Shown here: in pieces, positions 1 to 23,800 of the stretch
Layout: each line of letters opens with the position of its first letter
Position numbering within the stretch: position 1 is the first letter of the stretch
NCBI GenBank assembly: GCA_032718475.1
Contig: JAUCBJ010004644.1
Coordinates: 1-34,594 of the forward strand
Direction of reading: 5' to 3'
DNA from: Nemertoderma westbladi
Lineage: Eukaryota > Animalia > Xenacoelomorpha
Length of the DNA stretch: 34,594 nucleotides
Translations under genes and position numbers: made by a program
The notes under the pieces: model-generated
The model's input: the letters and a program-made list of their open reading frames with translations, nothing else
Told to the model about the DNA's origin: nothing
Database searches by the model: none

Positions 1-334
1 ATATTTATCCTTCTACAGTATTTGTAGGCTAAAAACTAGCTCAATCTTCAGAATCTTCGAATAGTCTTCAAATGTATCCTTCGTTTAGAAAGGATAATTT
101 ATCCTACGAATTATAGACTATTATTTGAATTGTCAGACAATTTAGACGGCTAAAATGCTGATAATTTTGAAGAAAATTTATTTCGATCAAATTAGCAGCA
201 TATTACTGTCAGACTGTAGTAGCAATTTCGAAGGATGTGAGATGTGACTTTGCTGGGTACAATGCCATAACCAGGCTTAGTACAGTAGTAGTAGGTTTCC
301 CTGTAATTAGAGAAATAAATGATCAATATTGACT

Positions 335-432
335 TGCGGCGAAATGGCATTTGCAGTGAGACACCTAGCCGCACATTATCTGCGGCGAGGTGACCTGCGG
401 CGAAGTGGCAGTGCGGCGAGGTGACCTTTCCC
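335..432. repeat. Four copies of a 15-16 bp GC-rich motif (TGCGGCGARRTGRC), probably the subterminal repeat of a DNA transposon end
   Basis: Copies start at 335, 381, 396 and 412 in an otherwise AT-rich background. Confidence 0.55.
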
Positions 433-456
433 TCAATTGGTACTGTGGTAACAACA

Positions 457-500
457 TTGTTTATTGTTTTGGTTAGAAAAACCCACCCTGTAACCTACTC
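457..500 (+). repeat. Fragment of a dispersed repeat family
   Basis: TTGTTTATTGTTTTGGTTAGAAAAACCCACCCTGTAACCT resembles segments near 14500-14536, 30133-30168 and 33677-33715. Confidence 0.6.
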
Positions 501-674
501 TTCTCTTTGGGGCGTATTGGTAACTTCTCAGCTTGTATATAAGTGGCTATTTTACTATTAGGCCTACTAAATGACTACCGGCAGACAGGTACTGTAATAT
601 TGGCGAGTATCACAGGCGGCGGCGGGTACCAAACCTACAGACCGATGATTCCCTTAAAAGTTAATGTAACGTAG

Positions 675-885
675 GTAAGTAATTTAACATTGTCAGATTG
701 ATCGATTGATAATTTAATTAACAGAGGATACTACTGTAGGTACTAATAATAAATACAAATATCAGAATATAGTCATTTCCTGAGATATACCAGTATACTG
801 AGCAGCTGACTGGCTGAGTGGACATCTGATATCAGGATAACGTATTTAATAATCAATCTAACTAACTATATTCTGATATTACTAG
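675..885 (+). other. Putative 5'-UTR intron of the TTLL7-like gene
   Basis: Consensus donor AG|GTAAGT at 675, CTAACTAAC branch-like motif at ~858-866, acceptor TAG at 883-885, ATG at 908. Confidence 0.45.
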
Positions 886-907
886 CCCCACATGATCTGA
901 TGATACG

Positions 908-3418
908 ATGCCGAACCCACAATCTATCGATGTATATAGTAAACTACCAGACACCAAACCACCTGATGGTAAGTTTAAACCACTAACGGAAAGCGTCGCC
1001 TCAAACGGCAGCAGCAGGTTTAACCGCTTATCTGAATCAGAAATCGAGGAGTCGCTTCCAACAAGAAACTCCCCATCCATTTATAGCAGAATGTTCCCAA
1101 CAACGACAACATCTACGAAACCACCGGGCAACAAATTGCGTCGGCAATCAGCCATCATGGTGCATATCGCCGGGACCCGTTACGATGTTGTAAAGGAAGT
1201 CGCAGAGGAGATGGGATTCCGTACCACGGTCCTCGATAAGGATCTCACCGAGTGTTTCATTATTTGGAGCGACGCCTGCGTCCAAACCGAAGTGATATCC
1301 TCCTTAAAATCCTTCCAGCGTATTAACCACTTCCCGGGAATGGGTGAGATTTGTCGGAAAGATTTTTTGGCGCGAAATTTAAGCAAAATGGCTCGTAAAT
1401 TCCCCGACGAGTATAAATTCAGCCCCAAAACCTGGATCTTACCCGCGGATTATACGAACTTACAGAATTACATCCAGGATTTGAAAGCAAAACGTAAAAC
1501 TAAAACGTTTATAATAAAACCCTGCAACGGCTCTATGGGCCACGGGATTCAACTGTTCCGCAATTTGGATAAAATTCCCCACGACGAGATGAACGTAGTC
1601 CAGGAATACCTCGACAAGCCGCTCCTAATCGACGGTTACAAGTTCGACCTTCGCGTCTACGTCGTCATGACTTCATGCGACCCGTTACGGGCGTTCCTCT
1701 ACAACGACGGGCTGGTGCGACTCAGTACGGAACCTTACGCCACGCCCTCCGAGGCCAACCTAGCCCGCAGCTGCATGCATCTAACCAACTACTCGCTCAA
1801 CAAGTTCAGCGACAACTTTATCCGCAGCGAGGACATCGACAAAGGAAGCAAGCGATCTATTAAGTACCTAATGGAATATTTATCCGATAAAGGTTTCGAT
1901 GTGGATAAACTCTGGGCCGATATAAAGTCGGTTCTGGTGAAAACGTTATTGGTGGCGGAGCCGCACGTGTTGCACGGATACCGAGGCTGTCGTCCCGGGC
2001 AACCGCCCAACGCCCAGTCCGTCTGCTTCGAGGTCCTCGGCTTCGATATCTTCCTCGACCGCCGGTTGAAGCCTCATCTTATCGAGATAAACCGCGCACC
2101 GAGTTTCGGAACGGATTCACGAATCGACTACGATATAAAGAGCGGAATCCTCAGGGATTCCTTCCGACTGCTGCGCGTCCGGCCTTCCGATCGCCGGAAG
2201 AGCATCGCCTTGGATAAAGCGGAGAGTCAACGACGCCTCCATCCCGCGGGCGAGTCCGGGAAAAAGTTATCCCGTCGACGTCGCGAGATTAACGACGAGT
2301 TATCGCGAGTTCGAAGAGAGAAACTCCGGTTCGAGTTCGAGAATCGGAACCTCGGTAACTTCCAGCGGCTGTTCCCGACGGAGGTCGAGGGATTAGCGAG
2401 TCGATACGAGGAGTTGATGAGGTTCGCCTTCCTCTCGACGCTCTCGGGAGGCCGATCCGTCGCGTTGCACAAGGACTACGCGACCGTCGCCACGAACAAA
2501 CAGCGGGAGGAGGAGTTACTCCAGTTGCTGGAGGAGTGCGAGTTGGATGAGTCGAACGAGTCGTCACGGCCTAAACCGCTGTCGTCGATGCCTCCAGCGG
2601 AGACGCCCAGTCGTCGGAACGCTGAGACGACGACGGACGAGGAAGAGGAGCCCCGAAAACCGGTGGAGCGACGGAGACGATCGGGTTTGCTTCCGGCAAC
2701 CCGGAGGATAGTCGCCCCCCGGAAGCCGCCGCCGGCGCGTCTCGCGTTCCCGCTGCGGAACCAGAACCTCCAGATGGGCGCGGAACGGAGCGGCGCGGAA
2801 CGGAACGGGGACGACGATGAACGGATACGCGACGCGCTCTCGGCGCTCAACTCGCTGCGGATTAAATACCCCGGACGGGGCGACGTGGAGGCGGCCGATC
2901 GGCTCTGCGAGATAACCGCCAACTGGGGCTTCCATAAACCCCGGGTCGGCGCCTATTGGCTGGTTAAACTGGACGCGGTAAAACGGCGCCGCTTATTGGA
3001 CATCGTCCAGGACAACGCGAGAGAGGTTGTTCGTAAAGTTTGGATGGTTAGCGAACCGGTGACGGTGCCGTTGTGGATGGCCGTCGTTAAAGTAATCAAT
3101 CGGTTGCTATGGAACCACGGACAGGGTCTGTGGGCGGCCTTCGACCCCGGTACGGGAGACTCTGTCTGGGAGTCCACGCTGCTCAGGGATAAGACGCCCC
3201 CTAACGGAGTCACCCTGGACTGCTGTAGACGGGTGGTGCAGCTCGCCAAGGACTGTCTGCTGACAGTCTACCAGCTGTCCCTAGAGACCCGACCCCGTAC
3301 AGACTCGCTGGCCCAGACCGTGGTCCCCATTAGCTTCCCCAGCCCCTCCAGTTTGGCGCCTCTCAGCCAACGACTCATGAGAATCTACGGCAGAGAAGTT
3401 CCTTCGTATGCAAAGTAA
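908..3418 (+). CDS. TTLL7: Tubulin polyglutamylase TTLL7-like, 836 aa, single-exon CDS
   Basis: TTL ATP-grasp motifs QRINHFPGMGEICRKD, VVQEYLDKPLLIDGYKFDLRVY, HLTNYSLNK, CFEVLGFDIFLD and EINRAPSF; AEPHVLHGYRGCRPGQPP is characteristic of TTLL7. Confidence 0.92.
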   Translation: MPNPQSIDVYSKLPDTKPPDGKFKPLTESVASNGSSRFNRLSESEIEESLPTRNSPSIYSRMFPTTTTSTKPPGNKLRRQSAIMVHIAGTRYDVVKEVAEEMGFRTTVLDKDLTECFIIWSDACVQTEVISSLKSFQRINHFPGMGEICRKDFLARNLSKMARKFPDEYKFSPKTWILPADYTNLQNYIQDLKAKRKTKTFIIKPCNGSMGHGIQLFRNLDKIPHDEMNVVQEYLDKPLLIDGYKFDLRVYVVMTSCDPLRAFLYNDGLVRLSTEPYATPSEANLARSCMHLTNYSLNKFSDNFIRSEDIDKGSKRSIKYLMEYLSDKGFDVDKLWADIKSVLVKTLLVAEPHVLHGYRGCRPGQPPNAQSVCFEVLGFDIFLDRRLKPHLIEINRAPSFGTDSRIDYDIKSGILRDSFRLLRVRPSDRRKSIALDKAESQRRLHPAGESGKKLSRRRREINDELSRVRREKLRFEFENRNLGNFQRLFPTEVEGLASRYEELMRFAFLSTLSGGRSVALHKDYATVATNKQREEELLQLLEECELDESNESSRPKPLSSMPPAETPSRRNAETTTDEEEEPRKPVERRRRSGLLPATRRIVAPRKPPPARLAFPLRNQNLQMGAERSGAERNGDDDERIRDALSALNSLRIKYPGRGDVEAADRLCEITANWGFHKPRVGAYWLVKLDAVKRRRLLDIVQDNAREVVRKVWMVSEPVTVPLWMAVVKVINRLLWNHGQGLWAAFDPGTGDSVWESTLLRDKTPPNGVTLDCCRRVVQLAKDCLLTVYQLSLETRPRTDSLAQTVVPISFPSPSSLAPLSQRLMRIYGREVPSYAK

Positions 3419-3496
3419 TTTTGGTGCACCTGAAGTTTCTATAGATTTTTGTATTTAAATTAAATAGATGTAAAAATTTATAATTTTACAGAGAAG

Positions 3497-3599
3497 TTAC
3501 TGTTTTTTTGAACTCCGTGTCGAGTGTTTGTTTATTTTCGACCGGTAAACAATAAATACTGAAAAATAAAACGAGACAACGGAGTTGAAAAACAATAAT
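3497..3599. repeat. Imperfect inverted repeat (MITE-like fold-back) just downstream of the TTLL7 stop
   Basis: TGTTTTTTTGAACTCCGTGTC (~3501-3521) versus GACAACGGAGTTGAAAAACA (~3575-3594). Confidence 0.55.
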
Positions 3600-4266
3600 T
3601 TTTGTAATAATTAAATTAACGTTTTTTATTTTGTTTGAAAATCGCTACTTTTTGTTTCGAATCCTATTTTAATAATTACTGTTAAAAATAATTACCCACG
3701 TCTGCGAAGCGGCATCCGGTTTTTCTGGACCTTTACTTTTCTATTTATGTGCCTTTAAATCCAAAGGTTGGGCTGCAGTATTTAACGAGACCCGGATATG
3801 GGAATGAATTAGCTAACTTATATCTCTCCACCGCCATTGTGTACATTTATGGGTAATTACTGATGGTTTGTATCCCCCCCCCCCCCCCCCCCCCCCACTC
3901 ACGCGGCTCGATCACATTAATTTTTCCAGTTGGATAAAAGTAAAATATATCGATTATCAAACAATTATTATTTATTATTCTCATGCCGTACATTATATTT
4001 ATTTATTTTTTTCACCTCACATGTAAATTACCTTAGTAATTTTTTGTTTATTTATTTTTGCCACAATAAACTGCATTGCTTTACTTTTTCTATAGTAACT
4101 ATATTAATAATAAGGAACTGTGTAACAAAATATTAAAGATCGTTTATCACATTGTAATTAACTGCAGAATAAAACATTTATTTGTAAATCTAGTATTAGT
4201 TTCTACATCAAATTCAAAGTTTTCCCATAAATAACGTTAGTTGGCCTAGGTACAGCAGGACAATGT

Positions 4267-7200
4267 GCATAACGTGGAATGGTAATATGGTAACGCCTAC
4301 TTGGGCCCCGTTGCATAACGTGGAATGGTAATATGGTAACGCCTACTTGGGCCCCGTTGCATAACGTGGAATGGTAATATGGTAACGCCTACTTGGGCCC
4401 CGTTGCATAACGTGGAATGGTAATATGGTAACGCCTACTTGGGCCCCGTTGCATAACGTGGAATGGTAATATGGTAACGCCTACTTGGGCCCCGTTGCAT
4501 AACGTGGAATGGTAATATGGTAACGCCTACTTGGGCCCCGTTGCATAACGTGGAATGGTAATATGGTAACGCCTACTTGGGACCCGTTGCATAACGTGGA
4601 ATGGTAATATGGTAACGCCTACTTGGGCCCCTTTGCATGACGTGGAATGGTAATATGGTAACGCCTACTTGGGCCCCGTTGCATAACGTGGAATGGTAAT
4701 ATGGTAACGCCTACTTGGGCCCCTTTGCATGACGTGGAATGGTAATATGGTAACGCCTACTTGGGCCCCGTTGCATAACGTGGAATGGTAATATGGTAAC
4801 GCCTACTTGGGACCCGTTGCATAACGTGGAATGGTAATATGGTAACGCCTACTTGGGCCCCGTTGCATAACGTGGAATGGTAATATGGTAACGCCTACTT
4901 GGGCCCCGTTGCATAACGTGGAATGGTAATATGGTAACGCCTACTTGGGACCCGTTGCATAACGTGGAATGGTAATATGGTAATGCCTACTTGGGCCGCG
5001 TTGCATAACGTGGAATGGTAATATGGTAACGCCTACTTGGGACCCGTTGCCTAACGTGGAATGGTAATATGGTAACGCCTACTTGGGCCCCGTTGCATAA
5101 CGTGGAATGGTAATATGGTAATGCCTACTTGGGCCGCGTTGCATAACGTGGAATGGTAATATGGTAACGCCTACTTGGGACCCGTTGCCTAACGTGGAAT
5201 GGTAATATGGTAACGCCTACTTGGGCCCCGTTGCATAACGTGGAATGGTAATATGGTAATGCCTACTTGGGCCGCGTTGCATAACGTGGAATGGTAATAT
5301 GGTAACGCCTACTTGGGACCCGTTGCCTAACGTGGAATGGTAATATGGTAACGCCTACTTGGGCCCCTTTGCATGACGTGGAATGGTAATATGGTAACGC
5401 CTACTTGGGCCCCGTTGCATAACGTGGAATGGTAATATGGTAACGCCTACTTGGGACCCGTTGCATAACGTGGAATGGTAATATGGTAACGCCTACTTGG
5501 GCCCCTTTGCATGACGTGGAATGGTAATATGGTAACGCCTACTTGGGCCCCGTTGCATAACGTGGAATGGTAATATGGTAACGCCTACTTGGGCCGCGTT
5601 GCATAACGTGGAATGGTAATATGGTAACGCCTACTTGGGACCCGTTGCCTAACGTGGAATGGTAATATGGTAACGCCTACTTGGGCCCCGTTGCATAACG
5701 TGGAATGGTAATATGGTAATGCCTACTTGGGCCGCGTTGCATAACGTGGAATGGTAATATGGTAACGCCTACTTGGGCCCCGTTGCATAACGTGGAATGG
5801 TAATATGGTAACGCCTACTTGGGCCCCGTTGCATAACGTGGAATGGTAATATGGTAACGCCTACTTGGGCCCCGTTGCATAACGTGGAATGGTAATATGG
5901 TAACGCCTACTTGGGCCCCGTTGCATAACGTGGAATGGTAATATGGTAACGCCTACTTGGGCCCCGTTGCATAACGTGGAATGGTAATATGGTAACGCCT
6001 ACTTGGGCCCCGTTGCATAACGTGGAATGGTAATATGGTAACGCCTACTTGGGACCCGTTGCATAACGTGGAATGGTAATATGGTAACGCCTACTTGGGC
6101 CCCTTTGCATGACGTGGAATGGTAATATGGTAACGCCTACTTGGGCCCCGTTGCATAACGTGGAATGGTAATATGGTAACGCCTACTTGGGCCCCTTTGC
6201 ATGACGTGGAATGGTAATATGGTAACGCCTACTTGGGCCCCGTTGCATAACGTGGAATGGTAATATGGTAATGCCTACTTGGGCCGCGTTGCATAACGTG
6301 GAATGGTAATATGGTAACGCCTACTTGGGACCCGTTGCCTAACGTGGAATGGTAATATGGTAACGCCTACTTGGGCCCCGTTGCATAACGTGGAATGGTA
6401 ATATGGTAATGCCTACTTGGGCCGCGTTGCATAACGTGGAATGGTAATATGGTAACGCCTACTTGGGACCCGTTGCCTAACGTGGAATGGTAATATGGTA
6501 ACGCCTACTTGGGCCCCGTTGCATAACGTGGAATGGTAATATGGTAATGCCTACTTGGGCCGCGTTGCATAACGTGGAATGGTAATATGGTAACGCCTAC
6601 TTGGGACCCGTTGCCTAACGTGGAATGGTAATATGGTAACGCCTACTTGGGCCCCTTTGCATGACGTGGAATGGTAATATGGTAACGCCTACTTGGGCCC
6701 CGTTGCATAACGTGGAATGGTAATATGGTAACGCCTACTTGGGACCCGTTGCATAACGTGGAATGGTAATATGGTAATGCCTACTTGGGCCGCGTTGCAT
6801 AACGTGGAATGGTAATATGGTAACGCCTACTTGGGACCCGTTGCCTAACGTGGAATGGTAATATGGTAACGCCTACTTGGGCCCCGTTGCATAACGTGGA
6901 ATGGTAATATGGTAATGCCTACTTGGGCCGCGTTGCATAACGTGGAATGGTAATATGGTAACGCCTACTTGGGACCCGTTGCCTAACGTGGAATGGTAAT
7001 ATGGTAACGCCTACTTGGGCCCCGTTGCATAACGTGGAATGGTAATATGGTAATGCCTACTTGGGCCGCGTTGCATAACGTGGAATGGTAATATGGTAAC
7101 GCCTACTTGGGACCCGTTGCCTAACGTGGAATGGTAATATGGTAACGCCTACTTGGGCCCCTTTGCATGACGTGGAATGGTAATATGGTAACGCCTACTT

Positions 7201-10200
7201 GGGCCCCGTTGCATAACGTGGAATGGTAATATGGTAACGCCTACTTGGGACCCGTTGCATAACGTGGAATGGTAATATGGTAACGCCTACTTGGGCCCCT
7301 TTGCATGACGTGGAATGGTAATATGGTAACGCCTACTTGGGCCCCGTTGCATAACGTGGAATGGTAATATGGTAACGCCTACTTGGGCCGCGTTGCATAA
7401 CGTGGAATGGTAATATGGTAACGCCTACTTGGGACCCGTTGCCTAACGTGGAATGGTAATATGGTAACGCCTACTTGGGCCCCGTTGCATAACGTGGAAT
7501 GGTAATATGGTAATGCCTACTTGGGCCGCGTTGCATAACGTGGAATGGTAATATGGTAACGCCTACTTGGGCCCCGTTGCATAACGTGGAATGGTAATAT
7601 GGTAACGCCTACTTGGGCCCCGTTGCATAACGTGGAATGGCAATATGGTAACGCCTACTTGGGCCCCGTTGCATAACGTGGAATGGTAATATGGTAACGC
7701 CTACTTGGGCCCCGTTGCATAACGTGGAATGGTAATATGGTAATGCCTACTTGGGCCGCGTTGCATAACGTGGAATGGTAATATGGTAACGCCTACTTGG
7801 GCCCCGTTGCATAACGTGGAATGGTAATATGGTAACGCCTACTTGGGCCGCGTTGCATAACGTGGAATGGTAATATGGTAACGCCTACTTGGGCCCCGTT
7901 GCATAACGTGGAATGGTAATATGGTAACGCCTACTTGGGCCCCGTTGCATAACGTGGAATGGTAATATGGTAACGCCTACTTGGGACCCGTTGCATAACG
8001 TGGAATGGTAATATGGTAATGCCTACTTGGGCCGCGTTGCATAACGTGGAATGGTAATATGGTAACGCCTACTTGGGACCCGTTGCCTAACGTGGAATGG
8101 TAATATGGTAACGCCTACTTGGGCCCCGTTGCATAACGTGGAATGGTAATATGGTAATGCCTACTTGGGCCGCGTTGCATAACGTGGAATGGTAATATGG
8201 TAACGCCTACTTGGGACCCGTTGCCTAACGTGGAATGGTAATATGGTAACGCCTACTTGGGCCCCGTTGCATAACGTGGAATGGTAATATGGTAATGCCT
8301 ACTTGGGCCGCGTTGCATAACGTGGAATGGTAATATGGTAACGCCTACTTGGGACCCGTTGCCTAACGTGGAATGGTAATATGGTAACGCCTACTTGGGC
8401 CCCTTTGCATGACGTGGAATGGTAATATGGTAACGCCTACTTGGGCCCCGTTGCATAACGTGGAATGGTAATATGGTAACGCCTACTTGGGACCCGTTGC
8501 ATAACGTGGAATGGTAATATGGTAACGCCTACTTGGGCCCCTTTGCATGACGTGGAATGGTAATATGGTAACGCCTACTTGGGCCCCGTTGCATAACGTG
8601 GAATGGTAATATGGTAACGCCTACTTGGGCCGCGTTGCATAACGTGGAATGGTAATATGGTAACGCCTACTTGGGACCCGTTGCCTAACGTGGAATGGTA
8701 ATATGGTAACGCCTACTTGGGCCCCGTTGCATAACGTGGAATGGTAATATGGTAATGCCTACTTGGGCCGCGTTGCATAACGTGGAATGGTAATATGGTA
8801 ACGCCTACTTGGGCCCCGTTGCATAACGTGGAATGGTAATATGGTAACGCCTACTTGGGCCCCGTTGCATAACGTGGAATGGTAATATGGTAACGCCTAC
8901 TTGGGCCCCGTTGCATAACGTGGAATGGTAATATGGTAACGCCTACTTGGGCCCCGTTGTATAACGTGGAATGGTAATATGGTAACGCCTACTTGGGCCC
9001 CGTTGCATAACGTGGAATGGTAATATGGTAACGCCTACTTGGGCCCCGTTGCATAACGTGGAATGGTAATATGGTAACGCCTACTTGGGACCCGTTGCAT
9101 AACGTGGAATGGTAATATGGTAACGCCTACTTGGGCCCCTTTGCATGACGTGGAATGGTAATATGGTAACGCCTACTTGGGCCCCGTTGCATAACGTGGA
9201 ATGGTAATATGGTAACGCCTACTTGGGCCCCTTTGCATGACGTGGAATGGTAATATGGTAACGCCTACTTGGGCCCCGTTGCATAACGTGGAATGGTAAT
9301 ATGGTAACGCCTACTTGGGACCCGTTGCATAACGTGGAATGGTAATATGGTAACGCCTACTTGGGCCCCGTTGCATAACGTGGAATGGTAATATGGTAAC
9401 GCCTACTTGGGACCCGTTGCATAACGTGGAATGGTAATATGGTAATGCCTACTTGGGCCGCGTTGCATAACGTGGAATGGTAATATGGTAACGCCTACTT
9501 GAGACCCGTTGCCTAACGTGGAATGGTAATATGGTAACGCCTACTTGGGCCCCGTTGCATAACGTGGAATGGTAATATGGTAATGCCTACTTGGGCCGCG
9601 TTGCATAACGTGGAATGGTAATATGGTAACGCCTACTTGGGACCCGTTGCCTAACGTGGAATGGTAATATGGTAACGCCTACTTGGGCCCCGTTGCATAA
9701 CGTGGAATGGTAATATGGTAATGCCTACTTGGGCCGCGTTGCATAACGTGGAATGGTAATATGGTAACGCCTACTTGGGACCCGTTGCCTAACGTGGAAT
9801 GGTAATATGGTAACGCCTACTTGGGCCCCTTTGCATGACGTGGAATGGTAATATGGTAACGCCTACTTGGGCCCCGTTGCATAACGTGGAATGGTAATAT
9901 GGTAACGCCTACTTGGGACCCGTTGCATAACGTGGAATGGTAATATGGTAACGCCTACTTGGGCCCCTTTGCATGACGTGGAATGGTAATATGGTAACGC
10001 CTACTTGGGCCCCGTTGCATAACGTGGAATGGTAATATGGTAACGCCTACTTGGGCCGCGTTGCATAACGTGGAATGGTAATATGGTAACGCCTACTTGG
10101 GACCCGTTGCCTAACGTGGAATGGTAATATGGTAACGCCTACTTGGGCCCCGTTGCATAACGTGGAATGGTAATATGGTAATGCCTACTTGGGCCGCGTT

Positions 10201-11911
10201 GCATAACGTGGAATGGTAATATGGTAACGCCTACTTGGGCCCCGTTGCATAACGTGGAATGGTAATATGGTAACGCCTACTTGGGCCCCGTTGCATAACG
10301 TGGAATGGTAATATGGTAACGCCTACTTGGGCCCCGTTGCATAACGTGGAATGGTAATATGGTAACGCCTACTTGGGCCCCGTTGCATAACGTGGAATGG
10401 TAATATGGTAACGCCTACTTGGGACCCGTTGCATAACGTGGAATGGTAATATGGTAACGCCTACTTGGGCCCCGTTGCATAACGTGGAATGGTAATATGG
10501 TAATGCCTACTTGGGCCGCGTTGCATAACGTGGAATGGTAATATGGTAACGCCTACTTGGGCCCCGTTGCATAACGTGGAATGGTAATATGGTAACGCCT
10601 ACTTGGGCCCCGTTGGATAACATGGAATGGTAATATGGTAACGCCTACTTGGGCCCCGTTGCATAACGTGGAATGGTAATATGGTAACGCCTACTTGGGA
10701 CCCGTTGCATAACGTGGAATGGTAATATGGTAACGCCTACTTGGGCCCCGTTGCATAACGTGGAATGGTAATATGGTAATGCCTACTTGGGCCGCGTTGC
10801 ATAACGTGGAATGGTAATATGGTAACGCCTACTTGGGCCCCGTTGCATAACGTGGAATGGTAATATGGTAACGCCTACTTGGGCCCCGTTGCATAACGTG
10901 GAATGGTAATATGGTAACGCCTACTTGGGCCCCGTTGCATAACGTGGAATGGTAATATGGTAACGCCTACTTGGGCCCCGTTGCATAACGTGGAATGGTA
11001 ATATGGTAACGCCTACTTGGGCCCCGTTGCATAACGTGGAATGGTAATATGGTAACGCCTACTTGGGCCCCGTTGCATAACGTGGAATGGTAATATGGTA
11101 ACGCCTACTTGGGACCCGTTGCATAACGTGGAATGGTAATATGGTAACGCCTACTTGGGCCCCGTTGCATAACGTGGAATGGTAATATGGTAATGCCTAC
11201 TTGGGCCGCGTTGCATAACGTGGAATGGTAATATGGTAACGCCTACTTGGGCCCCGTTGCATAACGTGGAATGGTAATATGGTAACGCCTACTTGGGCCC
11301 CGTTGGATAACATGGAATGGTAATATGGTAACGCCTACTTGGGCCCCGTTGCATAACGTGGAATGGTAATATGGTAACGCCTACTTGGGACCCGTTGCAT
11401 AACGTGGAATGGTAATATGGTAACGCCTACTTGGGCCCCGTTGCATAACGTGGAATGGTAATATGGTAATGCCTACTTGGGCCGCGTTGCATAACGTGGA
11501 ATGGTAATATGGTAACGCCTACTTGGGCCCCGTTGCATAACGTGGAATGGTAATATGGTAACGCCTACTTGGGCCCCGTTGCATAACGTGGAATGGTAAT
11601 ATGGTAACGCCTACTTGGGCCCCTTTGCATGACGTGGAATGGTAATATGGTAACGCCTACTTGGGCCCCGTTGCATAACGTGGAATGGTAATATGGTAAC
11701 GCCTACTTGGGCCCCGTTGCATAACGTGGAATGGTAATATGGTAACGCCTACTTGGGCCCCGTTGCATAACGTGGAATGGTAATATGGTAACGCCTACTT
11801 GGGCCCCTTTGCATGACGTGGAATGGTAATATGGTAACGCCTACTTGGGCCCCGTTGCATAACGTGGAATGGTAATATGGTAACGCCTACTTGGGCCGCG
11901 TTGCATAACGT
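4267..11911. repeat. Satellite array of ~166 copies of a 46-bp unit GCATAACGTGGAATGGTAATATGGTAACGCCTACTTGGGCCCCGTT
   Basis: Constant 46-bp period (e.g. 4267 to 4313), substitution variants only, no ORF of 60 aa or more in the track. Confidence 0.98.
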
Positions 11912-12212: not shown

Positions 12213-12484
12213 GTCATAATATGCATTACATATGAATAGATATTGACAATAAAAAAATAAGTAATATAAAATATAATTAGCGATACTATCGAAGATATAA
12301 TCGTAGACACACCGGCATCATTTACATTTACATACAAATTAAAAGTTATTTAAATTTTAACATTTGTCAACATCAATTACAAATCAACAGTCATTACAAA
12401 ACAATAAGATAACATTTTAGCGACTACACTTTGTTATATCAGTTATTTAAATATAATGTAATATAATAATATGATAATGCTCTC

Positions 12485-12622
12485 CATAGCGAAAAATATC
12501 AACCGCCCCTATTGGGGCTCGAACCCGGTACCTAGGTTTCAAACTTCCCGTTATCAACATCCGGGTGTGTGTGTCCTAAGACAACTGAGCTACCTGTACG
12601 GTTGAAGAATTTATTCGCTATG
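12485..12622 (-). ncRNA. tRNA-promoter (Pol III) element with a degenerate minimal hammerhead fold, flanked by ~21-24 bp inverted repeats
   Basis: Minus strand: A box TAGCTCAGTTG (12592-12582); ACCCGG-ATGTTGA-TAAC gggaa GTTT-GAAA-CCTAGG-TA-CCGGGT (12566-12523); B box GGTTCGAGCCC (12525-12515); T5 at 12496-12492. Confidence 0.65.
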
Positions 12623-12821
12623 AGGTGGGCTTTTTTGGAGGGACATTTTGGGGTTTTTCCAATCACTCAAAGGAAAGTTCCCGTGCTCTGCCAGTAATGG
12701 CAGCCATGCCTCAAATAATAACTATACAGTGTTGTAGATACCACTGTGTTACCCGGGAGAGGAATATCACCTTCACTCCACCCCACAACATTTCATATAT
12801 TAAATCAGTTATTAGTTTTAT

Positions 12822-14327
12822 TTAATTTCTGCGATGGAACGTAACCTTAAAGTCTGCTGGACGTATGAATGTGCCACCTTGAACCTCTTTTATCGATGGT
12901 AACTTACCATCGCTAGGGGGCGCTATTACGAAATGTTGAAGAAGATGTCCGAAAATAATCCTCATCTCGATTTTAGACAGCTGTTCCCCAAAGCAGATTC
13001 TCGGCCCTATCCCGAAGGGAATGAAACAATCCTTCTTAACAAATTTCCCATTTTCATCTAGGAAGTGTTCCGGGTAAAATGTTTCTGGTTTCTCCCATAT
13101 TTCTGGGTCGTGGAGGATCGACCATAAGTTTCCCATGATGAATCCATTTTCTGGCAGTTCGAAGGAACGAAAGGTGGTTGATGACTCCAGCCTATGTGGC
13201 ACCGCGAACGGACCTACGCAACCGTATCGTAGCAACTCGTGCATAACCGCGTTTAAGTAAGGGACTTTCCTGAACACCTCTGTGTATGACGTTCCTTCAC
13301 GGCCTTCAGACTCATCTAAAAGATCTTGACATCGCTTCTGAATAGAAGGATTCTGTGCCATAATCAATACGAACCAACATATAGCGAAAGAGGTGGATTC
13401 TGAACCTGCAGAAAATATGTCTCGAATGACTGTTATCAGATTTTCGTTGGTGAGATGTAGGTTTTCTGGATTGTTCGATCGCTCTATTCTATCAACTTCT
13501 TTCAAATATCCATCGATGAAATCCTTATCTTCTTCGTCGAAGTTAATAACATCACGATGGGCGTCAATTTGAATTTGCAGAAGTTTGGCTATCTTTATTT
13601 GGTTGGTATGAGCAATATTTTGATTAGTTCCTGGAATAAACTTCCCAAAAGGAATAGGAATTCTTCTTGTCCCGGGTCCCGTGCTAACTAGAAGTGCTTG
13701 AATGCAATCTCTGAGTTCCCGAGAAAACCCGTCATTCCAATCGAAATGCTCACCGAAAACTATATTACCTACGATGTTTGAAATGGTTAGAAAAATCCAA
13801 TGAAATGGGTCCAAATCATCGCCTTCTCTTTTCATTAATTCGTCGGAGAGAATATTAGCCTCGACCAAAACGCGTTGTTCGAACGACGATTTTCCAACTC
13901 CGATGTTACGAAGTATTTTCGCGGCCAGCTTCCGAGTAACAGTCCAACCCTTCCCCTCATTAAAAATGATTCCGGTAACTTTTCCCGCGGTGTCTGTGGC
14001 GTTCAGTTTAGGTCTTCCCGAAAATATCTTTGAATTCTCAACAAAGGCTTCTCTGAATGCCTCGAATGAGTTGAGCACAAAGAGGCGTTTTGGTCCAACT
14101 TTAAGCGTAATGACGTCACTACCCAGTTGATTAGACCAGCGAGCCATTACCGAGCCGAAAGTCGTTGGAGTTACTTTCGAAAGGGAAATTATGTTTCCAA
14201 TGAAAGGCAATCCTTTTATTGAGGGAGGATAATTAAATACGACATCCTTCCGCAGATGCTTCAAGTAAAAGTATGCGCAACTGAAAACTATTGTAAAGAT
14301 GATGATTACATATACGAATTCAGTCAT
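12822..14327 (-). CDS. Cytochrome P450, CYP2 clan, 501 aa, single-exon CDS
   Basis: N-terminal membrane anchor, YPPSIKGLPFIGN hinge, WxxxR, I-helix AGSEST, ExxR (ELLR), PEHF meander, heme motif FGIGPRICFG. Confidence 0.95.
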   Translation of the reverse strand: MTEFVYVIIIFTIVFSCAYFYLKHLRKDVVFNYPPSIKGLPFIGNIISLSKVTPTTFGSVMARWSNQLGSDVITLKVGPKRLFVLNSFEAFREAFVENSKIFSGRPKLNATDTAGKVTGIIFNEGKGWTVTRKLAAKILRNIGVGKSSFEQRVLVEANILSDELMKREGDDLDPFHWIFLTISNIVGNIVFGEHFDWNDGFSRELRDCIQALLVSTGPGTRRIPIPFGKFIPGTNQNIAHTNQIKIAKLLQIQIDAHRDVINFDEEDKDFIDGYLKEVDRIERSNNPENLHLTNENLITVIRDIFSAGSESTSFAICWFVLIMAQNPSIQKRCQDLLDESEGREGTSYTEVFRKVPYLNAVMHELLRYGCVGPFAVPHRLESSTTFRSFELPENGFIMGNLWSILHDPEIWEKPETFYPEHFLDENGKFVKKDCFIPFGIGPRICFGEQLSKIEMRIIFGHLLQHFVIAPPSDGKLPSIKEVQGGTFIRPADFKVTFHRRN

Positions 14328-15053: not shown

Positions 15054-17266
15054 TCTACTACTACTAGGATCGGCATGCTGCATTGCAGCTCAATTATTAA
15101 GAATGCTGTGCCGGCTTATCGACAAAATTGCGCCGCCACAACTCCCTATCACCCATGACATTTGCTAGATCATCTGCATCTTCAAGGCCAGTGTCCTTTA
15201 AGATGCGTCTCAAGAAAGTCATGGGCTGTCCACCATGCTTATTCACTCCATGAGGCTGCCAAAGTACAAGATTATGCACTGGCTGGTCCTCACGGCGAAA
15301 GCAATGTCATGCAAAGCGGAGGCGATTTTGTTCTAGTGTCAAGCTTGGCGGAACCAATGAGACACCTCCAATGTTATATAGTGTCTGGTTGGAGATGTGT
15401 GCATTGTACTTGACACAATGAACCCGGCGTAGCGTTCTTGTAAATGTGCCATCCAGAGATTTGGTGTCCTCAGCAGTTAGAGCCCAGCATGGACTCCCAT
15501 AGAGGAGTACTGGAACTACTGCTGCTCTAAATAATCGGACCTTAAGTTTCCGATTAATTCTCGGTGACTTCCAAATACTGGAAGGCCTATTCAAGGCTGC
15601 CCATGCCTTTCCCTAACGTATTCGAAGGTCCTCACCTGACTTCCGGATCCTTGATCCCAGGTAACAGAAGTCGTCCACATGCTCAAGCATACCATCCTTT
15701 GAGCTTATGTTCATCCGATCAGAGGCTTGCTGAGGACTTTCAAAGTTAACTATAAAAAGACCAACACTAGAAGCAGCATGTTCTAATGAGCTGAGGAGCC
15801 ATGGGGCTCCCTCTAGTGATTCTGAGAGTACTCCTAAGTCATCAGCAAAGTCTAGATCGGTTATGTACTTGGCAGGATTTCCTCGACTTCTGGAGCCAGT
15901 AGGTGGAGTTATCATCACCCCAGCATCATTATGATGATCGAAAGACATGCGTAGAACATAGTCAACCACAATTATGAACAAGAAAGTGCAAGTGTGTCTC
16001 CCTGGAGGACGCCCCATAACACTTCAAATGGTTCTGTGTCACCGTCAACAGTAGACACAAATGTTGTCGAACCATCGTATACTGATCTGATTGCTGCAAT
16101 AATTTCATCAGGAATCCCATATAATGAAAGTATGCTGAACATACGTGAGCGAGAGACTGAACCAAAGGCCTTGAAGAAGTCAACAAAGATAACAGCCAGA
16201 TGCCTGTCGTTCTTTTTTGATAACTCTTCAATTATCCTTCTAAGTGCCAAAGTTGATTCCATGGCCCCATGACCTTTACGGAACCCATTCTGATTTCCAC
16301 GGAGCAGTCTCTCAATGGGATCCCTGATGCGATTTAATATAATTCTATTGTATAACTTTGCAGAAATCGAGATCAATGAGATTCCCCGAAAAGAACCAGA
16401 GTGTTAGGTTGCCCTTCTTGGGAACTGGCACAAACTTATTTGTTTTCATTTCTTGTGGGACTCTTGTTGTTCGGTACATGTCTACTATGATGGGATAGAT
16501 GAGCTTTAAACACTCAGGTATTTTAAAGACCTCAGGGGGAACACCATCTACTCCACTGACACGATTGGTCTTAATGCTCTTTGCAGCAGCCTTCACTTCT
16601 GCAAAGGAGATATCGCCAGTGGGAATATCTGGGAGTACAGACTCAGACACTTTTACTTCTATAAAGTTATCAGGCAATACCCTGTCGTCATTATTGAGGA
16701 GCTTTTCAAAGTGGGCCTTCCAACCTTTGAGGCGATCAGCTGGTGATTCAGCCTTAACCTTGGTGGTTGGTTGGCTTTTCCGCCCAGTAAGCAAGTTGGT
16801 CGATTTCCATGCCTGGGATGATTGCCTACTGTCGTCAGCATCATTGATGGCATCAACCTTTTGGTTTATTAGCTCCTGTAGATTAAAAGAGTACTGCCTG
16901 TTCAGGGACCTAGATGCAACCTTAACTGCATTCTTGGCCGCTGTAGTCTGTTTGATTCGGGACTCTTTCTGCGCCTTATAGAGGTCATTTCGACACTTCT
17001 GAATTTTGTTGTCAGTCCAGGGGGGCCCTTTTCCTGTTTCCAGGGTATACAGTAACTGTTTCTGCAGCTGCTAACTTAACTGCTTCTCTGAAGGCAGTAT
17101 AGCCCTCACAGTGATCTGCCGCCTCAGAGGCAAGAACCTCATACCTGTTGCTCAGCTGTAGTGTGAAGCTGGATCTCACACTTGGCTGTTGCAACAGAGA
17201 GGACCAGTCATGCCGCGGCAATGCAGATTTCGTGAGTGAAGATGTGCAAGAAGACAAAATTTGCAT
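15054..17266 (-). mobile_element. Decayed, 5'-truncated non-LTR retrotransposon (RTE-like LINE reverse transcriptase), frameshifted
   Basis: Overlapping ORF fragments with GVDGVPPE, QNGFRKGHG, IFVDFFKAF, GVLQGDTLA, DLDFADDL, FCYLGS and KLKVRLFRAAVVPVLLYGS; (TAG)n tail at ~15054-15066; endonuclease domain absent. Confidence 0.9.
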
Positions 17267-17467: not shown

Positions 17468-18472
17468 TGCTACCTGGGTTATGCCATGACCTACTATACT
17501 ACTACCTACCTACTATATTTTCTGGGCCGCTTAATCGATTGAAAGTAATATAGAAAACTCAAGTCTTAGTGGTACATCATTTTTGGTGCACCAAAATTAG
17601 GGTGTGGCATTAAGTAGGCTTTGAAGTATTTGCATTTGAAGTAGACTTCAAATTTTCAAAATTACGATATTCAGAAAATACCACAAGGTTTTCATTTCAA
17701 CCCATTTTTATAGGTTATCTACTACCTACCTACCTACCATGGTCTACTATAGTACACGTCATAGTTATGCCTATACAATATCTATATTGTGTAGCTATTC
17801 ACACTTAAACTAAATGTTCCAGAACATTTTGTATTTATTAAATAGAATAAATGGCCTGCAGCAAACAATAATTATTGCAATCTTTGAACGCCTATTTCTC
17901 AGCTGTTTCTCAACGAAATCCAGATATTGTTACATATTTGAAATCATTGCAACGCAAGTTTTCTATTGATATAAAAAAATAACTATTAATGTGAAGAATG
18001 TCAATAATACGGAGGGTGCGATTTCGCAAAAGGCACTAACAGAAATTTAAAGGCGAAATCGAAAATTCCGGCTTCATGGTAACAACCACGGTGAGTTGAA
18101 CTACTGTAGTTGTGTTTCAAATTTCAAGCAACATGATAAAGATTTGTATAAAAATTTGGGGGGGGGGGGGGTGGGGTGTCCCTGTCATCAGAAAATTACA
18201 CTATAATATTACGGGACATGGTGTATAATAAATTGCCCCGCGCAGCTATGCAAAACCATGCAAATTTCGAAGGCTCATATCTCCGTTTCTTTTACGACGA
18301 AATTCAGATTTATTAGTATTATGTATTTATTTTTCAGAAACTAAAATTCCTGTTTCACCCAAACATACTTGATGTCGCGGTAGGTCCGCTGTTAGAGAGA
18401 GATGGGATATGCATCTTAAGATTGCATGTTCAATAGAAGTGGATTAGATGGGAGAGTGAATGTCAGGTGCAA

Positions 18473-19070
18473 CAGAGGCATACCGAGGGTGGGGGGGGGG
18501 GGGACAATTTTTATGGGCGCCGATTTATGAAGGGCGCCAAATTAGAAAATTCGGTTTATGAGGGCGGCATAATATCATAAATAATATAAAGGGCCCTACT
18601 AAAAACATTAGAAAATAATTAAATAATAAAAAAAGAAAAAAAAATTATTTTATTATGAACGAAATAAACCACTTACAAACCATTTTATTATTACAGTAAA
18701 TCACCTAGGGCTTGCAACAACAATGCTATTATTTACTATATTTACAAGATCGTTTAAGTAGTTTGGCTTTATTAAGTATAAGTATACAGTAGAGAACACG
18801 AAGTTTGATGTGATTGATTGGGACGATGTAATAAATATATTTGCAGATAAAAAATCTAGGAAAGTATCAATTATTGTAATCCTACTGTAGCACTACTCCT
18901 ACTGTACATACAATTAGCAACATTTTTTAAAAATGTAATAATATTTTAAAATTGGTATCGGTAATAAAATTTTATAATACTGTATATAATTTTATGAATT
19001 TAGATGAATTTGTGGGGTGGGGTGTAGAATCAGCTTGTCACAGGGCGCCAGAAACCTTGGTACGCCTCTG
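18473..19070. mobile_element. Non-autonomous hAT-type DNA transposon (MITE), 598 bp
   Basis: TIRs CAGAGGCATACCGAGG / CCTTGGTACGCCTCTG (14/16 match); 8-bp TSD AGGTGCAA (18465-18472) / AGGGGCAA (19071-19078); subterminal GGGCGCC motifs. Confidence 0.85.
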
Positions 19071-19071
19071 A

Positions 19072-19181
19072 GGGGCAAGTGGCTGAACTGGTTAGCGCTA
19101 CTGATGAGGCCTGATATGCTGAAACGTACGTATAGCGGTGGTTCAACCCCCGATGATGGATAACGAGCTTCCTCGTTTTTT
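19072..19181 (+). ncRNA. tRNA-promoter (Pol III) element carrying a hammerhead ribozyme
   Basis: A box TGGCTGAACTGG 19080-19091, B box GGTTCAACCCC 19140-19150, hairpin AACGAG-cttc-CTCGTT running into T6 at 19176-19181. Confidence 0.75.
19096..19137 (+). ncRNA. Minimal type I hammerhead ribozyme, predicted cleavage after GUA (19132/19133)
   Basis: CGCTA | CTGATGA | GGC-ctgatat-GCT | GAAA | C-GTAC-G | TA | TAGCG: complete core, 5-bp stem I, 3-bp stem II, palindromic stem III ACGTACGT. Confidence 0.85.
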
Positions 19182-20356
19182 CCCATTTACAGTTGCATTA
19201 ACAGCTCAACTCCAATTTATTTAATTAATAACAATCAAATAAAATTTACTCTTAAGGATGTATCAATAATTAAGTTATATTATACAAGTTGCTTTTCCAA
19301 CTTAATCTGTAGTGAGCCAAAGCCCAAAAATTAAAAAAAGTACATATATGTGAGTTAATTTAATATACAGTAGAAAAGGGATAAATAAAATAATCACAAT
19401 CACACCGGTATTAATTTGTAAACCCCTAAGTAATAAAGGAAATCAGCTGACAATCAGAGAATACCCTGTACTTTGTACTCATACACACGTCCGTAGGGCC
19501 GTCGCGCAGGACGAGGCTCAGTTATCAGATACAGATTAAAATTGAGCAATTCTATCCCAAAATCGGTACTTAAGATATTTAAATAAATAAATAAGAAATT
19601 TAACCAAACCGCCAATAAGAATAAATCAAAGAAGAGAGGAAAGTTCCCCCCTCGCTTCAACCGCCCTCTTAATCTGCACCAACCCAACCGAAAGGAGCAC
19701 AGAGGATTAAGGAAAGGCAGAGGTATTAACAGGAAATTTGTGTTTTAAAAGTAATATATTTTTAGGTGTGGACTATCATGGAGGCAATCCAATTTGTAAA
19801 AATTATTAAAACTTACCTTATGCCGATAGTATTTATACTGAAATAGTAATTTATCATGTCAACTCCTCAAATAAATTATTTAGCTAATGATTCTAAAGAA
19901 TATGATTAAATACTCCATGCAATCATTTTGTGAGATAAATAATAAGCAAGCTGGCTTATTAGTCACTTTACACTAGTAGTGCCTGCCTTGTCTATGTTCT
20001 ATAGATGTAATTACCAGTTGCCAAGTAGTGATGAGATGATTGGACTGGTTCCAACTCCAACTAGCAGGCAATAACTAGTATGCCAAGGAATCAATGAGGA
20101 GGGCATTATGACTTAATTACGTTTAGATCAATTAAAATTTCTTAAAGCAAATCACTTGAACTAATTGAAAATTATAATGGAATGGTATGGGGATTACTAC
20201 AGCTGTATAACTTTTAAGTATAATTATTTATATCTTATACTATAAAATAATTAATTTCCATTACAAGAAAGGCTTGAAAATGCTGTTTTTACCCTAATCA
20301 ACTTAATTAACTGCTATTATTTTAGCTTCTCGAAGGCCACACGGAAATTCAACTTG

Positions 20357-20656
20357 CGCCATACATTCGCTATGTATATTGTAAACTCAATGAATTATAT
20401 TATTCGAACTCTATTAGCTATTACTTTTTGTATTCGTCATACAGCTGTTAGGACTCTTATAAACTTAAACTCTACAGCTGTTAGGACTATTGGTGGTGGT
20501 TAGGTTGACTAATATTATGTGCTCTTTATTGATGAGTTTTATTATTATTATTTTTGTGTCTAAAGTAAAATATAATTTATTAGTTTTGGAAATTATTTGT
20601 GTGATTTATTTGGGTTAGATGAGGGACTGAACGCTGGCCGTGCTTAACTTCTTGCG
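20357..20656 (+). repeat. 5' LTR (300 bp)
   Basis: CGCCATAC...TTCTTGCG; matches 25273-25572 with one mismatch seen by eye (20472 C versus 25388 A). Confidence 0.93.
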
Positions 20657-20666
20657 TGGTGGCTGG
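20657..20666 (+). promoter_or_regulatory. Primer binding site TGGTGGCTGG
   Basis: Begins with TGG (complement of tRNA CCA) immediately after the 5' LTR. Confidence 0.7.
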
Positions 20667-20845
20667 ATTATGAACCCTAGCCTTACAGACTTTCATAATC
20701 TGAATTTGCCTGACATTAACTGTTAGCGTTTCACCCAGCTCTTCCTTTAGACAAGATTTATTTCTTAGCACAAAAGGTTCGGTATATCAGTGAAATCATC
20801 CCAACTTTACACAATATCATTTCCCGGATCTGTTTTTATTCAATC

Positions 20846-23800
20846 ATGTCTTTAAAACCACCCAAACAATGGAGTCTGACCGAAAATGAGACTATTTCGT
20901 CATTTAACAACTGGCGCCAGAACATATTATTTCAACTTTCTACCTCGGATGAGTTCTCTCAGTTCCTTGATACATCATGGGGTGCTCAATTTACAACTAC
21001 AAACCGTGGTCTGACAGATGACCCAACTTCTGCCACACCAAGAAGATCTGCGGAAATGAATTCTCAGGCTGATGTGGCCCGTGTTTCTGCCAATATGGCT
21101 CAAATTGACGTTGCTAGCTCTTCTTCCTTTCGCCGCAATCCTTATCCCCAGCAAAACAAAATGCCTTTTCGTGGTTCAAATAAATCATTCCGGCAATCTG
21201 GATATCGTTCAAGCTCACAAACTTCTAAATCATGTTCATTTTGTAAGGCTTGTTCCAAACCTCATTTGGGACATGATATATCATCGTGTTGGGCTCTTTC
21301 CCGCTCTGATCGGTTGGGGCTAATGAAGGCCCTTGCTGTTGAAGTGTATGATGAGGAAGAACAAGATCCAGATGAATTTCCTGCTGATGACTCCATTACA
21401 GCACAATGTGTAACATCACCCACTGCTTTTAGAGTACAGTGTATGACCTCACCATATTTCTTTGCTTTTTTCAAATCTATACCATGCAGGGTTACAATTG
21501 ATACTGGTGCCACATCTAATCTTGTTTCTATGGCATTTGTCATGTCAGCCGGTATTACATTTTCCAGATCGGTACAAAGTGCTCGACAACTTGATAAATC
21601 ACTAATCAAGACTGTTGGTGAGGTTCACATCTCCCTATCATATGGAGGAATTGACCTCCAACTCGAAGCTCTAGTTTGTGAGTCTATGGATACTGATATC
21701 TTAGGAGGGGTTCCTTTCTGTGTTCAGAATGGTATAGAGGTAAATTTGGCTCGCCAGGAAATCAATTTGAAAGGTAAACTTATCACTTATGGTTCCAGAG
21801 CTGAAAATTTCAGCAACATTAGATTCCTTCAACAATGTGTGCGAAATCCTAAATCGACAACAATATTTCCTGGTGATTTTCTTGAAGTCACCAGTGATTC
21901 ATTATCCAATTTCAATGGAGAAGTAGCTGTCGAACCTCGATTTGATTCCCCTCTAAGTGGTTCGTGGCCATCTCCAATAATTACCCGTGTGATTGAGGGA
22001 GCCATCCGGATTCCGAACCATTCTGAGGTACCAATCAATCTTAAAAAGGCTCAACATATTGCCCAGATACAACCTGTTGTATCTTCAGATTTTAAGTTTG
22101 AAGCACCATTCACTCCAGCTCCAATGTTAGAATTTCCTTCCGATATGTCATTTTCTTCTACTGTTGTCCTAGATCCTGATAATCAACTCACAAGTATACA
22201 GAAAGAACAATTTCAAAGATTATTGGTCAAGTATGACTCTGTATTCAATCCTGACATTGGCGCCTATAATGATAATAGTGGTTGTATTCGTGCAAATATT
22301 AATTTAGGTCCTGTTCTCCCCCCCTCTACTAAGGGCAGGATTCCCTTTTATAATAATTCCAATCTTTCTCTACTACAGGAAGAAGCTGACAAATTGGAGC
22401 GTCTTGGTGTATTGGTTAAACCTGAAGATGTTGGAATTATTCCCCAATGTGTGTCTCCTAGTTTTCTGGTTAATAAGCCTGATGGAGGTAAGCGATTTGT
22501 AACTGCTTTCAACAACATTGCTCAGTTCACTAGAATGATTCCAGGCACTGTCACAAAATGTGATGATGTTCTTCGTAATATTTCTTCTTTTAAATACCTG
22601 ATTAAAACAGATTTGACCAAAAGTTTCTTCCAAATAAAGGTGTCTAAATCATCAATGCCTTATTTAGGTACAGTTACTCCATACAAGGGAATTCGTCTTT
22701 ATGCTAGAGCTGCTATGGGCATGCCTGGTTCGTCGGAATGGCTCGATGAAGTTGTATCTCGTGTTTTTGGTGATCTATTACAGCAAGGGAAAGTTGTTAA
22801 GTTGGCGGATGATCTCTATACAGGAGGAGATAGCATTGATGATTTGGTTATCAACTTTGAAAACATTCTTGAGCGTCTTTCTAATAATAACCTTCGACTT
22901 TCTAGTTCAAAGACAGTTATTGCTCCAAAGTCAACTACTATTCTCGGTTGGATATGGAGGGGCGGTTCCATATCAGTCAGCTGTCACAAAATTACCCCTC
23001 TAGTTGTCATGTCACCTCCATCTACATGTACAGCAATGAAATCATTCCTGGGAGCTTGTCAGGATGTATCCAGGTGTATAGAAGGTTACTCCTCTTTATT
23101 GGCTCCCCTTGAGGATAGTATTAAGGGTTTGAAAGGTAATGAGAAATTATCTTGGTCTCCAGAATTGCAGTCTGCTTTTAAGAAAGTCCAGGATACACTA
23201 CGTTCACCTAATACCATAACTATACCTACAAAAAGTGACCGGCTTGTTATTTCTGTTGACGCTGCCTGTAAAGTTTCCAATAAAGGTTTAGGGGCTACTC
23301 TGTTCGTGGTCCGCGGGGATAAAAAACATATTGGCGGATTTTACAGCTTCAAATTGCGTGACCATCAGACAAAGTGGCTTCCCTGTGAGGTCGAGGCCCT
23401 GGCCATTGGCTCTGCTGCTCAACATTGGAGGTCTCTTATTTGCAATAGTATACATACTACTCAGATTCTAACTGATAGCCGTCCTTGTGTTGATGCTTGG
23501 AAGAAACTATGCCGTGGTGAATTTTCCTCTTCAGCCCGAGTGTCCACTTTTCTTACCATTCTAAGTTCACTTAATATTAGTGTTTGTCACATTAAGGGTG
23601 TCAACAACTCTGTTAGCGATTATCAGTCTAGAAACCCCGCAATCTGCACTTATCCCAATTGTCAGATTTGTAAATTCGTCTCAGATACAGTGGATTCTGT
23701 TGTTTATGATATCTCTATATCTGATGTTCTAGCTGGAAGAATACATATGCCATATTTAAATAATACCTCATGGCGTGCTGCCCAACATGCATGTCCTGTT

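Follow-up and report, generated by a model that had tools for sequence, protein, structure and literature searches.

A predicted dead hammerhead copy set between tRNA-type boxes belongs to an abundant repeat family of Nemertoderma westbladi

Anatomy of the element

Comparison of the letters of 12485..12622 with those of related contigs indicates that this interval is a dead copy of an abundant repeat family bearing a hammerhead motif and tRNA-promoter-like boxes. The interval lies in a stretch of 34,594 nt, which was analysed as a whole and is referred to here as the window. The first-pass annotation had proposed the order A box, hammerhead, B box on the minus strand and every part was found in its place. 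The features of the element are the following:

12485..12622, minus strand: element core, with imperfect inverted arms around the A box, the hammerhead and the B box.
12622-12599, minus strand: left arm; its sequence is complementary to that of the right arm and prolongs the acceptor-stem register.
12592-12582, minus strand: A-box-like sequence TAGCTCAGTTG, by sequence match.
12523..12566, minus strand: type I hammerhead motif of 44 nt with a 6-bp stem I, core, stem-loop II, GAAA, palindromic helix III and GUA.
12566-12561, minus strand: 5' strand of stem I, ACCCGG, pairing with CCGGGT at 12528-12523.
12560-12554, minus strand: core AUGUUGA, with C3A at 12560 and A6U at 12557; the family majority reads CUGAUGA.
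12553-12541, minus strand: stem-loop II of 13 nt, with a U.U mismatch at its base followed by 3 pairs and a 5-nt loop.
12540-12536, minus strand: GAAAC, by sequence.
12537-12530, minus strand: palindrome ACCTAGGT, helix III.
12529, minus strand: A17, with the predicted cut between 12529 and 12528.
12528-12523, minus strand: 3' strand of stem I, CCGGGT, by sequence.
12525-12516, minus strand: B-box-like or T-loop sequence GGTTCGAGCC, overlapping the 3' strand of stem I by 3 nt.
12505-12485, minus strand: right arm, within which a T5 run (12496-12492) forms a putative Pol III terminator.
12445..12484, minus strand: A/T-rich 3' tail, found family-wide past T5; contigs diverge into unlike flanks near 12451 and 12468-12470.
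12654..12750, minus strand: repeated block that is probably the family leader or may be a separate repeat, with a summed depth of up to 3e4 at 12684-12707.

The 3-nt overlap between the B box and the 3' strand of stem I had not been pointed out before; in a second element, located near 19072 and described below, the two are kept separate. The left arm is family sequence in at least some copies, with collinear contigs extending to 12611-12631, and the family letters at 12623 and 12624 further extend the pairing between the arms. Collinear contig joints also link the ribozyme part to the leader block (for instance 12566-12678, 12572-12681 and 12587-12654), and the whole repeated unit thus exceeds 12485..12622, running from about 12445 to 12750. 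When folded, the 138-nt span has a minimum free energy of -46.2 kcal/mol (z -3.9, 200 shuffles) and the region inside the arms, folded alone, gives a z of 0.0, indicating that the stability of the 138-nt fold comes from the arms.

Setting in the window

The window contains uninterrupted ORFs for a TTLL7-like protein (896-3418), a cytochrome P450 (12822-14342, minus strand) and INTS2 (26148-29720), single uninterrupted ORFs for these products being unusual for animals, and a small exon with a splice donor occurs near 31950-32077. The TTLL7-like product displays 56-60% identity to animal homologues among the 120 matches listed. The P450 ORF shares its strand with the element; its 3' end is ca. 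70 nt away from the probable leader and ca. 200 nt away from the element itself. One AATAAA overlaps the P450 stop and a second is found in the left arm of the element (12615); paralogous P450 contigs were observed among those placed on 12300-13000.

Other repeats include a satellite of 7.6 kb (4266-11911; 46-bp unit, 166 copies, 96% matches) and a gypsy-like LTR retrotransposon at about 20360-25570, with near-identical LTRs and an ORF of 1,515 aa encoding protease, reverse transcriptase, RNase H and an integrase zinc finger. A 9-nt word at the start of the gypsy-like LTR also occurs in the arms of the element, probably by chance. Finally, a frameshifted LINE-like reverse transcriptase is found at 15300-17070 on the minus strand.

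Abundance and majority letters of the family

Assembled contigs from five runs were compared (X1, X2 and X4 for both elements, X6 for the first only and X7 for the second only), 7 of the 10 runs listed containing the stretch or part of it. X1, X2 and X4 correspond to one organism (A) and to three studies, one of which may be the source of the window itself. In these three runs, 605, 1,127 and 69 contigs, respectively, were placed on 12300-13000, with 262 of the 605 and 302 of the 1,127 contigs of X1 and X2 matching only in part. The peak of summed depth relative to the flank was 1.4e5 versus 19 in X1, 2.7e5 versus 30 in X2 and 1.6e4 versus 123 in X4, with values of 1.0e5-2.7e5 over 12468-12539 in X1 and X2. 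The resulting ratios are 7,410, 9,153 and 131, but since summed depth is not a copy number and the X4 ratios are about 50-200 times lower than those of X1 and X2, abundance is best given as "hundreds to thousands", and no more precisely. With depth ratios of 131-9,153 in three runs and unlike flanks, the family is nevertheless present in high copy and dispersed, as the first-pass annotation had supposed for its abundance. X6, whose labelling as RNA is a guess, gave two small fragments on 12300-13000 with a depth of 3-4, which says nothing about expression.

The two core positions that are broken in the 12485..12622 copy are restored in most of the depth of X1, X2 and X4, respectively, with C3 in 98.5, 98.6 and 89.2% and A6 in 97.5, 99.0 and 86.4%. 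The suggested check, namely whether the consensus returns to CUGAUGA, is therefore answered positively, with between 86 and 99% of the depth supporting it at either position across the three runs, and the conserved core CUGANGA...GAAA...UH is carried by the family majority and lacking in the 12485..12622 copy. That the majority has the exact core at both broken positions upholds the hammerhead identity, and it disposes of the alternative register UUGAUAA that had also been considered, since it is in the first register that the family has CUGAUGA. The A-box-like sequence has TG in this copy versus GG in most of the family depth (66, 88 and 47% in X1, X2 and X4; row 12583), and the loop of stem-loop II has a private change at 12549, where the other letter accounts for 99, 99 and 91% of depth. 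Among the 40 variant rows listed of 68, none falls within stem I, GAAA, the palindrome or the B box.

With C3A and A6U, the 12485..12622 copy would not cut, in keeping with the impairment predicted earlier. One X4 contig (record 21, 12519-13000) shows four differences, all outside 12519-12646, and has the same broken core, which indicates that this core is real and present in another sample. The probability of two hits among 11 core letters is 0.08-0.30 at 4-10% divergence, which is compatible with neutral decay; there is no need to invoke selection for inactivating a copy that follows the P450 stop at ca. 200 nt and has the orientation of that gene. The family had also been called old, a view that finds no support in the majority letters: these are near-uniform, most copies looking close to the majority sequence, which points to a mostly young or constrained family, with the proviso that depth-weighted contigs lean towards the consensus.

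A second family of the same design

In silico analyses further indicate that a second high-depth family of the same design, with an intact core, is represented 6.5 kb from the first element. Its features are:

19071..19156, plus strand: second element, with A box at 19080-19091, hammerhead with intact CUGAUGA at 19095-19138 and B box at 19140-19149.
19163..19231, plus strand: 3' part, with T6 at 19176-19181 and a high-depth tail at 19187-19231.
18437..18472, plus strand: leader, matched by loose contig ends before 19071 (43 contigs in X1, 59 in X2).
18473..19070, strand not assigned: hAT-like MITE of 598 nt inside the leader, with 12-nt terminal inverted repeats and an 8-bp duplication.

The terminal inverted repeats of the MITE start with CAG and match at 11 of 12 positions, and its 8-bp target duplication matches at 7 of 8; we presume from such features that it belongs to the hAT group. 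The MITE has displaced the leader of the second family, which explains why the family alignment begins at 19071. An imperfect palindrome at 18410-18438, directly upstream of the leader, is possibly part of the second unit. Loose ends behind 19156 and before 19187 overlap in a 6-nt word, so that about 35 nt have probably been deleted in the window copy.

Summed depth on 18980-19280 reached 1.0e5 in X1, 2.6e5 in X2 and 4.8e3 in X4; in X7 (organism C) no contig was placed on the second element, which is no proof of absence. The complete variant table has 8 rows and the majority changes only improve pairing: with the majority letters at 19117 (85-100%), 19120 (63-87%) and 19138 (96-100%), stem II gains a total of 5 pairs with G10.1-C11.1 and stem I a total of 6.

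Both majority versions have an identical 44-nt hammerhead geometry and palindromic helix III loops. Between them, four of the six stem I pairs and two stem II pairs are changed on both sides and still pair, a pattern that, with only two sequences and homology assumed, is suggestive rather than a covariation test. Alignment of the two elements scored 35 versus a maximum of 31 in 300 shuffles, an excess that comes mostly from the motifs by which the elements were picked, their flanks do not match in a self-blast and the position of the B box relative to stem I differs by 4 nt; that they are subfamilies of one family is thus unproven. The tails (19187-19231 and 12455-12466) share an A/T-rich word of ca. 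12 nt, as judged from the loose-end consensus against the window, which may be a common signal for a partner enzyme or due to chance.

The inverted arms of the first element, ca. 22-35 nt around the core, could in principle be the terminal inverted repeats of a MITE that has captured a tRNA/hammerhead core. We regard this origin as very unlikely: the two arms match imperfectly and have drifted apart within the family, family sequence (tail and leader) runs on outside both of them, no flanking duplication was seen and the second family has no such arms.

Chance matches and tRNA searches

A type I descriptor (at most 2 core mismatches, stem I of at least 5 Watson-Crick pairs, stem II of at least 3 and an 8-nt palindrome) matched only the 12485..12622 and 19072 elements in the window, and had 0 matches when the 26,948 bases outside the satellite were dinucleotide-shuffled 600 times. 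The descriptor was composed after the element had been seen, and the family letters in independent contigs, which restore the core in three runs, are for this reason the stronger evidence; together, they bear out the view that the motif is not a chance assembly. A strict B-box pattern had two matches in the whole window, one per element, and each is preceded by an A box at a distance of 60 or 67 nt.

A generic core-palindrome-B box pattern was also searched for in metagenomes, where it gave 76 matches in 73 loci, none with both a stem I of at least 4 pairs and the palindrome and none adding an A box; two viral loci came up as well. Several of these matches are repeats of one tandem family (L067:172-1079 together with L003, L015, L023, L034, L035, L039, L055, L056 and L061), the spacing of which is in multiples of 144 nt; this repeat fits the hammerhead-core/B-box pattern but is devoid of stem I and does not qualify as a hammerhead by the stem I test.

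The 3' half of the 12485..12622 element resembles the variable loop, T arm and acceptor side of a tRNA, possibly tRNA-Lys. The element might accordingly be imagined as a tRNA pseudogene or as a tRNA with an intron, whose variable loop and T stem happened to yield the palindrome and stem I, an explanation to which we give hardly any chance because it is largely refuted by the family letters, the majority restoring the exact core at the two broken positions. ARAGORN at its default threshold, with and without introns, reported no tRNA for the 12485..12622 copy or for the majority letters, and Rfam searches with E values up to 5 returned neither a hammerhead nor a tRNA match to this or the second element. 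At lowered thresholds ARAGORN made 15-25 calls, which are scattered across the slice and thus represent noise. No cloverleaf with an anticodon arm is recognised by tRNA finders in the element, which has A and B boxes of tRNA type by sequence match.

Mode of movement

The 12485..12622 family is fairly probably a non-coding retroelement resembling Sm-alpha of Schistosoma and the animal retrozymes, with its ribozyme set between A and B boxes and probably moved by a Penelope-like partner. Canonical animal type I hammerheads have a helix I of 6 bp, a helix II of 4 bp and a helix III of 1-2 bp with a palindromic loop, and cut best as dimers (PMC4209133); the geometry of the family agrees with this description. 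Since helix III has only 2 bp and a palindromic tetraloop, intact copies would be expected to cut well mainly as dimers. The cut, predicted after GUA and just upstream of the B box, would leave the A box and the B box on different pieces. Genomic copies extend across this site and include leader and tail sequences that lie outside a T5-ended Pol III transcript, so that the copied template would be a longer read-through RNA, either uncut or re-circularised by tRNA ligase. Both routes have precedents, with circularisation of retrozyme monomers by RtcB in vitro and acceptance of uncut RNA by a Penelope protein in vitro (PMC11167929). The unit of ca. 270-300 nt or more (306 nt as used in folding) is within the range of retrozyme monomers, 170-400 nt. 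Counting against the proposed retroelement, the T5 or T6 run in each unit would hinder read-through by Pol III.

All helix pairs of the majority version can form. In-context folding gave a stem I probability of 0.04 for the 12485..12622 copy and of 0.00-0.01 with majority letters, taken as unlinked, rising to 0.13-0.89 only with the 12548 variant, and stem II stayed at 0.04 or less throughout; these models do not favour the ribozyme helices for this copy or for most majority variants. An intact core is moreover no guarantee of activity, as only one of nine predicted retrozyme dimers was cleaved according to a preprint (bioRxiv 10.64898/2026.07.22.740005). The 306-nt unit folds weakly better than shuffles (z -1.8 as a linear and -1.9 as a circular molecule, 60 shuffles each), and a rod-like circle is unsupported from the 12485..12622 copy.

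The hammerhead could also be real while the family is a promoterless non-LTR retrozyme or a derivative of a Penelope pLTR, the A- and B-like motifs being relics or chance and RNA arising from read-through only. This would agree with family-common sequence reaching upstream of the A box and past T5, with the apparent lack of a promoter in metazoan retrozymes according to one review (PMC7761336), and with the many contigs in which the A box is about 11 nt nearer to stem I (loose ends at 12572). Both families, however, independently keep the A box, B box and T run in order with a spacing of 60-67 nt, the sole two strict B-box matches of the window fall in these elements and the family majority improves the A box. 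Furthermore, the distance between the B box and A17 is 3 nt in one family and 7 nt in the other, and a B box that moves by 4 nt relative to stem I is not simply a product of ribozyme geometry; a modest chance is left to a promoterless origin.

Contig ends and joints bear on a further explanation, namely that the family is a plain SINE of tRNA origin mobilised by a LINE, the hammerhead being carried along as a passenger that seldom cuts and single copies spreading as uncut RNA. No contig-end pile-up was seen at the predicted cut site among 22 loose-end rows listed of 339 for the first element and 18 of 244 for the second. No unit-length head-to-tail joint occurred among 15 listed of 16 for the first element or in 12 of 12 for the second, for which the leader was outside the compared stretch; short-read contigs collapse arrays and the elements of the window are single copies. 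Copies thus look dispersed, with unlike flanks, and depth declines toward the 5' end, all of which would suit a SINE, as would the presence of a LINE-like reverse transcriptase 3 kb away. It is unlikely all the same, since conservation extends beyond the 5' end expected for Pol III transcription, into sequence that the transcript of a simple SINE would lack, the tail is without poly(A) or simple repeat and does not match the LINE of the window, and the core is intact in two dissimilar families.

For the retroelement proposed here, chances that a Penelope-like partner moves the family are close to evenly balanced. Joints to the opposite strand were found at varying places and at single-copy depth in 8 of the 15 cases listed for the first element and 6 of 12 for the second, these joints representing about 1% of placed contigs, being ambiguous in direction and in some cases possibly caused by neighbouring copies or by the arms. 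A one-sided tail of about 40 nt is present and flanks are A/T-rich. Inverted 5'-truncated copies and a tail of 30-40 nt are described for Penelope-like insertions (PMC8557442; cf. PMC11167929), and animal retrozymes are proposed to derive from Penelope-like elements (bioRxiv 10.64898/2026.07.22.740005). The opposite-strand joints, the one-sided tail and this proposed origin together suggest such a partner. In the window, the elements bearing a reverse transcriptase are LINE-like and gypsy-like, and no Penelope-like element or ORF was found there.

A more tentative and rather doubtful extension is that these repeats represent an undescribed class of "split-promoter" hammerhead SINEs. In these, a head derived from a tRNA would have exchanged its anticodon arm for the ribozyme, an event that may have taken place on two separate occasions within a single animal genome. 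If so, cleavage would part the A box from the B box and only RNA that is uncut or has been re-joined into a circle could seed promoter-bearing copies; the short Pol III transcript might in addition act in trans as a dimer partner that switches cleavage on.

Comparison with known systems

Searches covering the running text of papers turned up no natural hammerhead described as sitting between an A box and a B box; an earlier description is nonetheless possible. A close likeness is to Sm-alpha and Sj-alpha of Schistosoma, highly repeated elements of an animal genome that combine a type I hammerhead with A and B boxes of tRNA origin (PMC6765202, PMC2770079, PMC2576457, PMC5993326). According to the wording of a review, on which the difference in order rests, the Sm-alpha promoter precedes the ribozyme and is left at the 3' end of the cut monomer (PMC6765202). 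In the 12485..12622 family, in contrast, the two boxes flank the ribozyme, which takes the position of the anticodon arm, and the predicted cut separates the boxes, the B box being downstream of the cut rather than the whole promoter upstream of the ribozyme.

With animal non-LTR retrozymes the family shares a type I hammerhead of canonical form whose helix III is short and palindromic, a unit of ca. 300 nt, the lack of an ORF and the occurrence of several families per genome (PMC7229834, PMC7761336, bioRxiv 10.64898/2026.07.22.740005). The U.U at the base of helix II in the 12485..12622 family is as in the axolotl HHR_Amex2, of which 22% was cleaved in an hour as a monomer and more as a dimer (PMC7229834). 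Retrozymes are, however, defined by tandem repeats and circular RNA and described as promoterless (PMC7761336), whereas the present family has A and B boxes and a T run and shows no tandem joint among those listed.

Penelope-like pLTRs and their non-autonomous derivatives share the type I hammerhead and the palindromic helix III (PMC4209133, PMC8557442, PMC11167929), together with the hints of inverted truncated copies and of a one-sided tail. The 12485..12622 family differs from the form described there in having a motif of canonical size, instead of the minimal one with a long helix II, and tRNA-type boxes, and a partner with reverse transcriptase and GIY-YIG domains was not found within the window. 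The Helenus and Ajax tRNA-containing LTR elements also have A and B boxes inside a non-autonomous retroelement, and the portion of text searched mentions no ribozyme outside one match in the references (PMC10886601); the 12485..12622 element, for its part, has no evident LTR pair or primer-binding site.

Taken alone, the 12485..12622 copy is only a dead relic. Its family bears on two questions, by what route animal retrozymes, which seem to lack a promoter according to one review (PMC7761336), are transcribed, and whether their circles are real transposition intermediates. A cut site inside the element's own Pol III promoter would tie inheritance of the promoter to re-ligation or to escape from cleavage, which makes these questions testable through copy ends and circular RNAs. 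Finally, the occurrence in one genome of two dissimilar, abundant families with the same layout suggests that the nested arrangement works as a design.
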